Assembly: GCA_019118365.1 (NCBI GenBank)
Contig: DWZA01000109.1
Coordinates: forward strand, 54,110-118,109
DNA length: 64,000 nucleotides
Direction of reading: 5' to 3'
DNA from: Candidatus Lachnoclostridium stercoravium
GTDB lineage: Bacteria > Bacillota > Clostridia > Lachnospirales > Lachnospiraceae
Within the stretch, counting starts at the first letter, position 1. Every line of letters starts with the position of its first letter. A program made the translations under genes and the position numbers. This document shows positions 27,620 to 50,868 of the stretch, piece by piece. The notes under the pieces were generated by a model. It ran no database searches, was not told the origin of the DNA, and worked only from the letters and a program-made list of their open reading frames with translations.

Positions 27620-27669
27620 AGTTTCTCCTGTCCTTTCGCCGCAGCGCTTCTTAAGCTGTCATGGCAGCA

Positions 27670-27736
27670 GTTCAGCCATGTATCTTCCCTCCAGCACAGA
27701 ATGCGCTGGAGGGAAGCCCTGGATGTCCGGCTGAAC
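27670..27736. repeat. GTTCAGCC...GGCTGAAC REP/MITE-like element
   Basis: Terminal inverted repeat plus internal CTTCCCTCCAGC / GCTGGAGGGAAG hairpin; near-identical to 50392-50449. Confidence 0.88.
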
Positions 27737-28961: not shown

Positions 28962-29744
28962 TTAATCTCTGGCCTGCGCAAGCTTTTTCAAAATGCCGAT
29001 GGACCGCGCCGCTTCCTCGGACGGAACGCCGGAAAACGCTTCAATACTTACGATCCCGTCGTAATGGAGCGAGCGAAGCTTCGCAAAAAATTCCTCATAT
29101 CGGTCTTCGTGGGAAGGAAGAAGTCCCAGCCTGGCGGTCCCTTCCAGCTGCGCCATATGTACGTGGCCGATCAGAGACGGATCCTGCTCCAGATCCCGCA
29201 GGGACTCCCGGTTGATGTCGATATGGTAAAGGTCGCAGACAAGAGCCATATTCTTTTTATTTACCCGTCTTACAAGCTCCGCCCCATGGTTCCAGGACAG
29301 ACCATAGTTGGCTTCCGTAGGATTTAAGTGTTCCCACAGGATCCGGATCCCGTAGGCTTCTGCCACATCGCAGAAAATGGAAAGAAATTCCGCCGCCTGG
29401 GAATTGGAAAGGGGCACGTCGTATCCGTAGGGAAGCCTTCTGCAGGCCGGAGAACCTATGCCGATAGCGCCGATCCCAAGCTTTGCTCCCACTTCGCAGA
29501 GCCTTTTTGCGTACTCCCTTGTCTTATCCGCAGAAGCGCCTTCTCCTACGATCGGCACGGAAGCCGGAACAGCAGAATTGAAGCCGCAGCATTTTACCCT
29601 GCCTTCCCGGATCGTTTTCGCCATCTCGTCCAGTCTGGACGGCTCATACTCCACTACGTCCCTGCCCGCCAGCTCGATATAATCATATCCTAATTCATCC
29701 AGCAATCCATAATTATCAAACGTTGTACAAAAACCAAACTTCAT
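28962..29744 (-). CDS. Sugar phosphate isomerase/epimerase (xylose isomerase-like TIM barrel)
   Basis: GYDYIEL, WEHLN..E, DLYH, HVH, SIE metal ligands; start reassigned to MKFGFC at 29744. Confidence 0.82.
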   Translation of the reverse strand: MKFGFCTTFDNYGLLDELGYDYIELAGRDVVEYEPSRLDEMAKTIREGRVKCCGFNSAVPASVPIVGEGASADKTREYAKRLCEVGAKLGIGAIGIGSPACRRLPYGYDVPLSNSQAAEFLSIFCDVAEAYGIRILWEHLNPTEANYGLSWNHGAELVRRVNKKNMALVCDLYHIDINRESLRDLEQDPSLIGHVHMAQLEGTARLGLLPSHEDRYEEFFAKLRSLHYDGIVSIEAFSGVPSEEAARSIGILKKLAQARD

Positions 29745-29793
29745 TCCAAATCCTCCTGAAATCTTTATCTTTTTGTCCATAACACTGAAGGTA

Positions 29794-29934
29794 ACTCGCA
29801 CTAAGCTCGAAAACACCTCGCTAAGTGCTCCTAGTATACCATGTCCACTAAAACTCGTGGAAGACCTTGTTAAGTGGACAGGTATGACTCGCACTAAGCT
29901 CGAAAGCACCTCGCTAAGTGCTCCTAGTATACCA
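29794..29934. repeat. A-B-A tandem hairpin repeat (48-bp direct repeats around a related 45-bp unit)
   Basis: 29794-29841 and 29887-29934 are identical at 47 of 48 positions; the middle unit shares the CACTAA...TAAGTG core. Confidence 0.9.
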
Positions 29935-30030
29935 CAAAACAGGCCTGGCTGAAATAGCATTGCCATAATTTTCCGGCCGCTTACAAATTCTCCGGATTCT
30001 CTTTTCCCTCACTGTGACCCCAGATTTTTC

Positions 30031-30077
30031 TTGCAAGACCAAAGTGTCCTGATTATAATGTTAATATAGTGTTAACA
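30031..30077 (+). promoter_or_regulatory. Sigma70-type promoter of lysR with overlapping LysR-type dyad
   Basis: TTGCAA-17 bp-TATAAT, followed by TGTTAA-N7-TTAACA containing T-N11-A. Confidence 0.7.
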
Positions 30078-30120: not shown

Positions 30121-31017
30121 ATGGATACCCATTATCTTAACTATATTCTTACGATCGCTGAAAAACGCAACATGACAAAGGCCGCCCAGGAGCTTTTTGT
30201 CTCCCAGTCCTCTTTAAGCCAGTATCTGTCCAAGCTGGAGCAGGAGCTTGGGACGCCTCTTTTTCTCCGGGCAAAGGGCGAGCTGGTGCCTACTGCTGCC
30301 GGAGATCTCTATATCTCGGCGGCAAAGCAGGTGATCTCCATCAAAAATCAGCTTTATAAGGACATATCCGCTCTGGAAAATAAGGGAAATATCACCATCG
30401 GCACTACTTCCCAGTTCGGCCTTGGGATCATGGCCCAGGTCATCCCGAAATTCCGTATCGAATATCCGGATTATACCATTGAGATCACAGAATCGTCCAA
30501 TCAGGCCCTTGTAAAGCTTCTTTTAGACGGGCAGATCGATTTCGGCCTGATGGCCGCCAACCGCATCGACGTTTTTCCGGAAGGGACCGCTGAAGTCCTG
30601 CGGGAGGAAGAGCTGTGGCTGGCTGTTCCGGCTTCCCACCCCTTCTGCCAGAACGACCCTCCGGCTACGATCTCCCACCAGGCGATCACTGAATATTTCA
30701 GCGAGGATAATTTTATCCTGGCCAAGCCAGGCTCCACCATCCGGAACCTGTCCGACGAGATCTTTCAGACCTACCATTTTTCACCCAGCGCCAGCTGCGA
30801 GACAAACAACATTCCTATGGCCCTTAAAATGGCTGCTTCCGGCGCAGGCATCGCCTTTCTGGCGGAATCCTGCATTACCTTAAGCCTGCCCCTCTGCTAT
30901 TTCCGGCTGGATCCGCCCATGCATCGGCTGAATGTCCTTGCCCGGCGAAAATCCCTGGAGATCGGTCCGGCGGAGGAATGCTTCTGCAGCTATATCCGCA
31001 GCCACTTCCACCGGTAG
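30121..31017 (+). CDS. LysR family transcriptional regulator
   Basis: NMTKAAQELFVSQSSLSQYLSKLEQELG HTH. Confidence 0.95.
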   Translation: MDTHYLNYILTIAEKRNMTKAAQELFVSQSSLSQYLSKLEQELGTPLFLRAKGELVPTAAGDLYISAAKQVISIKNQLYKDISALENKGNITIGTTSQFGLGIMAQVIPKFRIEYPDYTIEITESSNQALVKLLLDGQIDFGLMAANRIDVFPEGTAEVLREEELWLAVPASHPFCQNDPPATISHQAITEYFSEDNFILAKPGSTIRNLSDEIFQTYHFSPSASCETNNIPMALKMAASGAGIAFLAESCITLSLPLCYFRLDPPMHRLNVLARRKSLEIGPAEECFCSYIRSHFHR

Positions 31018-39497: not shown

Positions 39498-39548
39498 GCA
39501 AGCTTGTAACGCTGTTTATCATATATCCTGGCGCACAGCTGAACTGTT
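39498..39548. repeat. Right half of the GTTCAGCC-family element
   Basis: 51 nt with 2 mismatches to 50488-50538; overlaps the stop codon of the LarA-like gene. Confidence 0.9.
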
Positions 39549-40847
39549 ACGCTTTTCTGATTCCATCTCGTCGATCCTCACCAGATCTCCATTCTCTTTA
39601 AACTGCATATCAAACGGCTTCCCTACGATCTGGATCTGCGGATACCTGGCCGCTTCTTCCCAAAGCGCTTCTGATAAAAAAATCCTTCCGATATCCAGTG
39701 TATTTTTTATCCATATCATTTTAGGCCTCTCATAATCAATACCCATACATCCATTGATCGCCGTCTGTATTGCTACCCTGTCGTTATCAACTACCATTGG
39801 CATCTTCGCGGAATTATAGATTCTGGACGTGATCAGGTTCGGGTAGGTATTCATAAAATCAATGGCATCCCTATATTTTTCCGGAACCACGTCCAGAAGC
39901 CCCATGCCGCAGGCATTTCCATGAGTCTCTTCCGTCAGGCGCAGGCCGCAGATCATCTGCTGATGCGCATCTTTTGGAATGCCGTCATGGGTATACCTGG
40001 AAATGATCATGGTATCCATACCAGCCCCGCTGATATTTTTCCCTGTTTCCTCTACCAGCAGTACGTCGTAGCTGGGAATAACGATCTTAGGAAAATTCTG
40101 ATATGCTTTTTTCAGCAGCAGCGGCTCTTTTTCCAAAATTTCCGCTGCCTTTATCACATGGATCTCCGCAGTTTCGTCATAGGCGTTTTCAATCAGGCCC
40201 ACTCCAAAGAGCACTGGGGTATGTTCCAAAATAAATCTTCCGATCTTCTGGATATTTTCCGACATATTTACCATACCCAGGCTATGGCATAACGCTGCTC
40301 CCTTCTGTTTGCCCAGTCCGATAACAGCCATCTTTAACAGGCCGCTTTCAACCGGACCATTAAAAGATGGATGTGGTTTGATCCGGTTGACCAGGACAAT
40401 GCCGTCGGATTCCAAAGCATATCTGTCCACATATACCGGCAGACCGTCTGGTTCTGTCCTGCCAATGCAGACCGTATCCATAGAGGCCAGGATCGGACAG
40501 CCGCAGCTTTCCTCTGTAATGCCAAGAGAAGCCAGAACCTCAGCCTGCCCCTGAGCTGTAGCCCCGCCGTGGCTCCCCATAGCTGGTATGATAAAGGGTT
40601 CCCCGCCTTTTTCCCGGATAAAACTGGCAATTTCACTGATAACCAGGGCGATGTTATCGATTCCCCTGCTTCCTGCCGTAATAGCAATGCGGCCGCCCGG
40701 CCTGACCGAAGCGCCTGCGCCGGAAAGCTCCAGCCTTTTACGGATTTCGGCTTTCGGATCTTCCACTTTCGGCCTTGGAAATATCTGTCTTGCTTCCACC
40801 ATTCTGGGAATTTTAATATGGGAAACCAGTTCTGCCAATCTGCTCAT
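39519..40847 (-). CDS. LarA superfamily (lactate racemase domain) protein
   Basis: AITAGSRGI, PAMGSHGGATAQGQ, NRIKPH, ESGLLKM..IGLGKQKGA, GMDT, NACGMG. Confidence 0.82.
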   Translation of the reverse strand: MSRLAELVSHIKIPRMVEARQIFPRPKVEDPKAEIRKRLELSGAGASVRPGGRIAITAGSRGIDNIALVISEIASFIREKGGEPFIIPAMGSHGGATAQGQAEVLASLGITEESCGCPILASMDTVCIGRTEPDGLPVYVDRYALESDGIVLVNRIKPHPSFNGPVESGLLKMAVIGLGKQKGAALCHSLGMVNMSENIQKIGRFILEHTPVLFGVGLIENAYDETAEIHVIKAAEILEKEPLLLKKAYQNFPKIVIPSYDVLLVEETGKNISGAGMDTMIISRYTHDGIPKDAHQQMICGLRLTEETHGNACGMGLLDVVPEKYRDAIDFMNTYPNLITSRIYNSAKMPMVVDNDRVAIQTAINGCMGIDYERPKMIWIKNTLDIGRIFLSEALWEEAARYPQIQIVGKPFDMQFKENGDLVRIDEMESEKRNSSAVRQDI

Positions 40848-50391: not shown

Positions 50392-50534
50392 GTTCAGCCG
50401 TATATCTTCCCTCCAGCACAGAATGTGCTGGAGGGAAGCCTGGGATGTCATCCCTATGCCAGGATATATGGTAAATCGCTTTTACAAGCAAGCTTGTAAC
50501 GCTCTTTATCATATATCCTGGCGCACGGCTGAAC
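50392..50534. repeat. Full-length composite GTTCAGCCG...CGGCTGAAC element (143 bp)
   Basis: Terminal IR; hairpin 1 shared with the 27670 copy; right half shared with the 39498 copy. Confidence 0.92.
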
Positions 50535-50868
50535 TGTTCTTCATATAATCGTGTATCTTCAGAGCCGCTTCAAATACCGGCTCTTCTGTTTCCATCACGC
50601 AGATCCCCTGAAGCTTTGCCTTATTGAGAGCCGCCTCGTCCAGCTTCGCGCCTTCCGCCATGACCACGCAGGCTGCATCCGCAAGGGATGCCACCGCCAG
50701 GGTGTTCATATTGGCCATAACGGTCACCCAGGCGCAGCCCGCCGGCGCCCTTCCCATAGCAATGCTCAGAAGATCGCAGCAAAATACAGCCTGGATCTGC
50801 CTGTCCATCTCCCCGCCTTCGCTCGCCAGGGAAAATATACCCTTATCCGCCAGTTCCTGAACTGTCAT
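50509..50868 (-). CDS. DRTGG domain protein
   Basis: FCCDLLS.AM, WVTV, AVASL, ACVVM..G. Confidence 0.8.
   Translation of the reverse strand: MTVQELADKGIFSLASEGGEMDRQIQAVFCCDLLSIAMGRAPAGCAWVTVMANMNTLAVASLADAACVVMAEGAKLDEAALNKAKLQGICVMETEEPVFEAALKIHDYMKNSSAVRQDI

Follow-up and report, generated by a model that had tools for sequence, protein, structure and literature searches.

The A-B-A triple hairpin upstream of a xylose isomerase-like gene in Candidatus Lachnoclostridium stercoravium is likely to represent one and a half head-to-tail copies of a 93-nt non-coding module, drawn from a mobile set of promoter-region modules that sit at extended -10 boxes. The descriptive part of this account is well supported. 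Read in the sense of the downstream gene, the module has the layout ATGGTATA(A/C)T, hairpin A', hairpin B' and again ATGGTATA(A/C)T. Members of the set are A'B' (93 nt), a second module X' (111 nt) and further types in sister species, and each is flanked by the -10 box on both sides. No published description of the repeat was found in literature searches or in Rfam. Judged from the sequences, what appears to be novel is an insertion core that coincides with the extended -10 of a promoter, together with hairpin pairs in head-to-tail order and no transposase found.

Organization of the A-B-A locus

The window, by which we mean the whole 64,000-nt stretch of DNA that was analysed, contains two 48-nt direct repeats, A1 and A2, that are identical at 47 of 48 positions, lie 93 nt apart from start to start and flank a 45-nt central unit B with an 11-nt inverted repeat (Table 1). 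The first-pass annotation had described two 48-bp copies with one mismatch around a 45-bp unit and had proposed that all three units fold as hairpins with a mismatch, and both statements were borne out. RNA folding predicted a hairpin for each A copy, with a stem of 5 + 3 bp split by an A.A mismatch and a loop of 13 nt, and an extended hairpin for B at -17.8 kcal/mol (z = -2.7) whose outer stem pairs (ATACC/GGTAT) take in half of the boundary motif. The fold z-score of the 149-nt region was -4.1 on the plus strand and -2.8 on the minus strand. The impression that CTA/TAG words are rare elsewhere also held, as the frequencies per kb in the region and in the window were 14.2 and 0.2 for CTAG and 35.5 and 1.1 for CTAA. 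On the minus strand each A copy opens with TGGTATACT and then AGGAG, the extended -10 match noticed before. The reading of the region as the leader of an epimerase gene had to be corrected, because the downstream gene encodes a xylose isomerase-like TIM-barrel protein and starts at 29744, not at 29966.

Table 1. Coordinates of the features discussed in the text; positions are those of the window unless a contig is named.
Feature	Position	Strand	Remarks
A2 module, gene-distal	29887..29934	-	Predicted hairpin G29891-C29921; boundary motif TGGTATACT at 29926-29934
B module	29842..29886	-	Predicted extended hairpin 29837-29884
A1 module, start of truncated second unit (by analogy)	29794..29841	-	Predicted hairpin G29798-C29828
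Stretch from A1 to ribosome-binding site	29758..29793	-	Unit similarity fades near 29786 (GAGTTACCT)
Ribosome-binding site of downstream gene	29751..29757	-	AGGAGGA
Downstream gene, 260-aa xylose isomerase-like TIM-barrel protein	28962..29744	-	Pfam AP_endonuc_2; ATG at 29744
Promoter-like site of LysR gene	30031-30059	+	TTGCAA-17-TATAAT
Divergent LysR-family regulator gene	30121..31017	+	
Repeat Y	50392-50538, 27666-27727, 39498-39550; C43:35723-35877		Also on many other contigs

The A-B-A arrangement was present within the same 376-nt intergenic region of five independent metagenome contigs, with 0-5 differences and an identical downstream protein, and is therefore not the assembly artefact that the first-pass annotation had considered. 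In one strain contig (L169), the base that distinguishes A1 from A2 (29813, 29906) was swapped between the copies, which suggests exchange between them. The same contig carried a C in place of the A of GTTATGGAC at 29780.

A second TGGTATACT lies within A1 at 29833-29841, 88 nt upstream of the ATG, and the window copy A1 has no clean boundary toward the gene. Further downstream, GTTATGGAC (29775-29783) can be aligned with GTTATACT, which precedes the orthologue in the related genome G005; from its sequence, it may be either a decayed native -10 box or a decayed remnant of B. By analogy, the locus would be read as a full A2'-B' unit, followed by a regenerated core at 29833-29841 and by A1', the beginning of a second, truncated unit. 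The TIM-barrel gene probably has its native -10 in the distal box of A2, on the analogy of the uvrA and C43 loci described below.

A dispersed 93-nt module bounded by an extended -10 box

The BLASTN search of the genome that had been suggested for A and B was informative. The 141-nt query gave 17 matches in the 3.0-Mb draft genome, and 14 of these were full B-A units of 93 nt, with 88-100% identity to the window copy and 90-100% identity to the consensus. The copies were dispersed over at least 14 contigs, and an extra A that completes A-B-A was present in only two of the 14 units, namely in the window and on contig C15. On the plus strand of the window the consensus reads TATTATACCAT, GTCCACTAAACTCGTGGAAGACCTCGTTAAGTGGACAGGTAT and GACTCGCACTAGGCTCGAAAACACCTCGCCAAGTGCTCCTATTATACCAT in succession. 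Both of its ends carry ATTATACCAT, the reverse complement of which, ATGGTATAAT, is a perfect extended -10, and every unit is bounded by ATGGTATAAT on the gene-sense strand. The module ends are direct repeats, and terminal inverted repeats are absent. In the same genome TATTATACCAT occurred 30 times versus 1.5 expected and TATACCATGTCC 19 times versus 0.4 expected.

The second module, X', is 111 nt long, contains unrelated GC-rich hairpins and has the same boundaries as A'B'. It adjoins a B-A unit at eight loci and is present in about 10 copies in all. Beyond the core and the GGAC hairpin end that flanks it, the two module types have nothing in common. A census of same-strand pairs of the motif TGNTAWAMT gave 28 pairs versus 8.5 expected, with 12 intervals of 92-93 nt (A'B') and seven of 108-111 nt (X'). 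About 68 further TGGTATA(A/C)T sites in the genome were unoccupied. On contig C15 the junction between the second A and X' falls at ATACCTG, a microhomology of 7 nt.

Another repeat, Y, of about 155 nt and with inverted ends (GTAGCAGTTCAGCCGTG ... CACAGCTGAACTATTAC), was far commoner than the -10 modules, with 183 BLAST matches in the genome, 73 of them of at least 120 nt. It often adjoins -10 modules, and on contig C59 an inserted copy of Y separates a B-A unit from the gene. Diverged hairpin subfamilies were also observed (C29:16400-17400 and C57:36980-37160), within longer repeats that flank a ribosomal-protein-like gene; an example is CACCAGGCTCGAAAAGGCCTCGCCAGGTG, where C-G replaces the T-A pair beside the mismatch.

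Position and orientation relative to genes

All 14 copies in the genome precede and face a gene whose reading direction is away from B; for the orientation, p = 0.0009 was reached already at 13 of 14. At 19 loci of relatives, judged by eye, most showed the same upstream arrangement. The order on the gene-sense strand was -10, A', B', -10, leader and ATG. The downstream genes are unrelated and encode, among others, a histidine kinase, RarA, UvrA, MurA, GalK, a MATE pump, a DD-carboxypeptidase and a MerR regulator, which excludes a regulon-specific leader. An earlier proposal of a gene-specific cis-regulatory leader was thus rejected, and so was a riboswitch, since a search of Rfam 15 (cmscan, E<=10) gave only four chance-level hits at E 1.7-9.3, none of them on the repeat.

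The boundary sequence ATGGTATAAT has the extended -10 form (TGnTATAAT) and is the sole candidate promoter at the empty C43 allele. The boundary boxes have no good -35, and a transcription start about 7 nt after the boundary box would fall inside the A' stem. The idea of duplicated promoter units survived in part, in that TGGTATA(A/C)T is the boundary of the unit and also the single native -10 of the gene at the empty allele.

Filled and empty alleles

At uvrA, in eight members of the genus, CGAACAAATGTTTGCAA (a LexA box with the -35) and a 17-nt spacer precede TGNGATATAAT, and the ATG follows after a leader of 38 to about 115 nt. The genome studied here has the same LexA box and spacer, followed by TGTGGTATAAT, A'-B', a second TGGTATAAT and a 29-nt leader, and its -10 box lies 17 nt after the TTGCAA inside the LexA box, as in the eight sister species. 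In the related genome G001 a different module is present twice, exactly at this insertion point. Among conspecific contigs with identical UvrA, some match the present genome and others add the 111-nt X' directly after the second box. The LexA box CGAACAAATGTTTGCAA is of the Cheo type, is conserved at uvrA across the genus and overlaps the -35 (L184-L195; C11:4816-4860 in the present genome). Both here and in G001, modules part the operator-promoter of uvrA from the gene and add a second -10 that is free of the operator.

A locus on contig C43 provided an empty allele within the species. In contig L251, AGAAAAT is followed by a single ATGGTATAAT, 38 nt before the ATG, and by AAGGAAAGG. The present genome and five other contigs carry a filled allele with 204 additional nucleotides (111 + 93) in the order ATGGTATAAT, X', ATGGTATAAT, A'B', ATGGTATAAT. 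We take the empty allele to be real and not an assembly collapse, because its bridging sequence could not arise from the collapse of a 10-nt repeat in a k-mer assembly. Thus, conspecific strains differ by whole modules, with the junction exactly at the 10-nt -10 core and in one orientation; judged from a T-to-A change at uvrA, the junction may be 10 or 11 nt long. The 10-nt core is found on both sides of each module, once at the empty site and with the same sequence at all loci, and it may for this last reason be a recombination core; a target-site duplication and a copy borne by the element would look alike. Deletion between direct repeats would yield the same empty allele, and the polymorphic sites fit gain or loss alike.

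The orthologues of the window gene in three relatives (G005, G008 and G002) are without the element. Junctions in sister species could not be defined for the window gene, rarA or galK, where the intergenic DNA is too diverged or rearranged. When the present genome was considered as the empty site for copies in relatives, there was only one close orthologue and its junction was blurred. No length polymorphism was seen at the C15, rarA and C26 loci among the conspecific contigs looked up. Several conspecific metagenome contigs (L253, L257-L259 and L263) end 135-410 nt upstream of module-bearing genes, so the repeats appear to break short-read assemblies. Upstream of galK, G008 has a 56-nt insert between TGG(T/C)ATAATAAGGAAACG direct repeats (L212) and G003 has a solitary diverged A'-like hairpin right after the -10 (L221). 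In G002 (L217), TGGTATAAT is followed by just the first 11 nt of A'.

Conservation of the hairpin across Lachnospiraceae

The stem, the A.A mismatch and the loop motif are common to A and B, and this hairpin core, with the loop TCG(T)RAAANACCTC, was found across Lachnospiraceae. In a set of 247 distinct hairpins, each of the three loop-proximal pairs (p1-p3) alternates between two Watson-Crick pairs, with counts of 186 C-G and 53 T-A, 175 G-C and 63 A-T, and 134 A-T and 101 G-C, and with few mismatched cells. Since the A.A mismatch was a selection criterion for this set, its conservation is supported instead by unfiltered counts (242 of 318 hairpins) and by an alignment of 35 units. In that alignment 94.5% of cells were paired, compared with 24-35% in slid controls, and both sides had changed at 14 of 24 pairs (75 cells); none of 500 shuffles reached the observed values of pairing and covariation. 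Pairing is kept by compensatory changes, and the structure is under selection. Counts of G.T and A.C mismatches (10 vs 18, p = 0.18) gave no strand signal.

Related units with 74-91% identity were present in several of 11 genomes of the same genus, some of them in tandem with a 93-nt period. The tandem array of G007 has 3.3 units, and a Muricomes genome has at least six units at the 93-nt period. The core pattern CACTARRYTCG-N6-8-CCTCRYYAAGTG matched more than 119 stretches in a collection of species-representative genomes, nearly all of them from Lachnospiraceae, including Butyrivibrio, Acetatifactor, C. symbiosum, Enterocloster, Faecalicatena, Hungatella and Dorea. The hairpins were intergenic family-wide, with 33 antisense and 25 sense to genes, 16 in convergent and 15 in divergent positions, so the association with -10 boxes holds for only part of the family. 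A phage or plasmid origin was rejected, as the hairpin core had one match among 2.9 million viral contigs and none in the plasmid collection. The first-pass annotation had also asked whether A is a known insertion sequence end or CRISPR repeat; apart from the single viral hit, no match was found in Rfam, plasmids or viral contigs. Two pattern matches lie inside a GC-rich tandem repeat on the chromosome of the gammaproteobacterium Algiphilus sp. (L108, 5203-5362). Hairpins of the family also occupy the rpsH-rplF spacer of the ribosomal protein operon, which is highly transcribed, in three genera (L058, L113 and L140), a position that is either conserved or recurrent.

Candidate enzymes and comparison with known elements

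The Y1/RAYT transposase domain (Y1_Tnp, PF01797) had no match in the genome, and among 41 relatives its presence did not track the repeat, with G000, G001, G010, G011 and G013 having repeats without Y1. Mobilisation by a RAYT or IS200 enzyme was rejected on these grounds. A search of the genome for an integron integrase (TIGR02249) gave a best score of 70.8 bits against a cut-off of 265. An integron was likewise rejected, as there is no integrase and the copies are dispersed instead of forming one attI-linked array. At 119 loci from other genomes no recurrent gene was found beside the hairpins, and, apart from the rpsH-rplF spacer, the neighbours that clustered were only ABC ATPases and regulators of generic kinds.

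Several known elements resemble the modules in part. REPINs are inverted doublets that are mobilised by the RAYT (Y1 HUH) transposase of the same genome (PMC8049555). Like the REP/BIME sequences and REPINs of Proteobacteria, the repeats described here are multicopy, short, intergenic imperfect palindromes with compensatory stems, which form mosaics and occur in both orientations relative to genes. In contrast to REPINs, the modules are arranged head-to-tail, no Y1 gene is present or correlated, and the insertion is at a -10 box. Putative mobile promoters and the reuse of promoters have been described (PMC3575422). Like those and the Correia elements, the modules are small repeats that put promoter elements before unrelated genes and add leader hairpins. 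In Neisseria, Correia (CREE/NEMIS) elements end in inverted repeats and cause the duplication of a TA target, whereas the modules lack inverted termini and the duplicated 10-nt core is the pre-existing extended -10 of the target gene. Direct rather than inverted repeats at the unit ends also distinguish them from a classical MITE.

The BOX elements of Streptococcus pneumoniae, boxA-boxB(n)-boxC, are modular, with variable internal modules, and form stable stem-loops in intergenic positions near gene starts. To our knowledge no transposase has been assigned to BOX, and we know of no BOX modules bounded by a promoter hexamer and of no defined core-site insertion. The modules of Lachnospiraceae resemble BOX and other Firmicute mosaics in their modularity, variable module number, location near gene starts, stem-loops and lack of a known transposase, but have no sequence relation to BOX and no Rfam match. 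The IS200/IS605 family requires the Y1 transposase TnpA and has a 4-5-nt target. Elements derived from this family share with the modules two related subterminal hairpins on one strand, a single orientation beside a fixed short sequence and the same short sequence at the far end. The differences are the lack of a TnpA Y1 in the genome, the target of about 10 nt, and the fact that X' shares the core and has different hairpins. As with attC sites, the modules form arrays in which each ends in the same core, which is paired with an inverse core in an imperfect hairpin with unpaired bases, and as with integron cassettes the insertion is just downstream of a promoter. Unlike in integrons, there is no integrase, about 19 dispersed promoters are involved and not one array, the modules are devoid of ORFs, and the core shows no relation to GTTRRRY. 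Of the earlier suggestions, HUH- or attC-like sites therefore came closest in behaviour, with gain or loss at a short core that pairs in a stem, but not in membership, as neither a Y1 transposase nor an integron integrase was found.

Alternative explanations

Spread might have needed no dedicated enzyme, if template switching or microhomology recombination took place between identical 10-14-nt -10 boxes (GGACATGGTATAAT), with tandem arrays arising by slippage and the hairpins being kept for some other host function. Such a route would account for junctions that are exact direct repeats, for the microhomology between the second A and X' on C15, for the swapped base in L169, which suggests conversion between copies, and for the missing transposase. 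We regard it as unlikely, yet as a serious rival: 10 nt is a short homology for ectopic recombination among some 19 dispersed loci, no module occupies the many other TGGTATA(A/C)T sites, a recognised site is suggested by the strict single orientation and the core-containing stems, and the module types have nothing but the core and the GGAC hairpin end in common. It also seems improbable to us that the hairpins are mainly a functional 5'-leader RNA, such as an mRNA stabiliser, a protein-binding site or a decoy for ribosome binding, with multiplicity due to selection and mobility secondary. Covarying pairs, the conserved loop and an A.A mismatch kept across the family would fit a structured RNA, the native promoter would transcribe the hairpins into the leader, gene-sense loops carry the Shine-Dalgarno-like GAGGT, and in other genera hairpin dimers lie directly before ribosome-binding sites, for example those of rplF and rplB. 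On the other side, the family-wide hairpins are sense and antisense to flanking genes in similar numbers (25 vs 33), the G.T and A.C counts show no strand bias, strains with and without modules encode identical proteins, and Rfam has no match.

The remaining two readings concern the window locus. The divergent intergenic region between a LysR gene and its target, with repeated dyads and -10-like boxes, would fit an array of operator or promoter units for a DNA-binding regulator, such as the divergent LysR protein. An array specific to this gene pair is nevertheless very improbable, as the unit also lies upstream of 13 other, unrelated genes without a LysR neighbour, orthologous loci in sister species, both LysR-less and LysR-linked, are without the element, and the conserved A.A mismatch favours a folded single strand over a duplex operator. 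As for an orphan CRISPR-like mini-array or an assembly artefact, to which we give practically no credence, the sole support is the repeat-unit-repeat layout with its 93-nt period. The CRISPR option, raised by the first-pass annotation, was rejected because the supposed spacer B is itself a conserved repeat that accompanies A at 14 loci and in other species; there is also no match to a CRISPR repeat or other Rfam family and no cas context in the window, and an artefact would have had to recur in five independent assemblies.

A model for insertion at promoters

In the mobile-module account that we prefer, a site-specific mechanism would move the modules, with the -10 core of about 10 nt as crossover or target. 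Because the end of a module would recreate the target, tandem and mixed arrays could build up. One half of the core, GGTAT, is predicted to pair with an internal ATACC in the stem of B' and with ATTATACC at the start of X', and such pairing of the core with an internal inverse copy would point to an enzyme that recognises folded single-stranded DNA. The geometry is similar to that of IS200/IS605, REP/RAYT and attC systems, which recombine at single-strand hairpins. More tentatively, the hairpin modules of about 90-110 nt could be undescribed promoter-targeting mini-elements, the oriented integration of which into the extended -10 is catalysed by a Lachnospiraceae enzyme. We consider this form of the model possible, though doubtful. 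Integration might occur into the strand that is exposed when a promoter is melted or replicated, and it would regenerate the -10 box, so that the target gene keeps its promoter and gains a structured leader and a regulator-independent -10. The putative enzyme would recognise the family-wide hairpin with its A.A mismatch and TCG..ACCTC loop.

At the window locus, the native promoter would be the distal box, which the divergent LysR regulator possibly controls, and transcription from this box would place three hairpins in a leader of about 180 nt. The internal box could add transcription that is independent of the regulator.

If the modules integrate at -10 boxes, they would be a natural means to rewire promoters without destroying them. 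At uvrA the insertion parts the gene from its SOS operator and places between them a second -10 without a LexA box, and at the window locus the arrangement could uncouple a gene for a sugar-phosphate enzyme from its LysR regulator. Since strains of an abundant gut Lachnospiraceae species are polymorphic for the modules, these may feed expression differences at the strain level. The conservation of the hairpin across the family implies that a binding protein or recombinase for it exists, and recombination by recognition of a 10-nt core within a hairpin would be mechanistically interesting.
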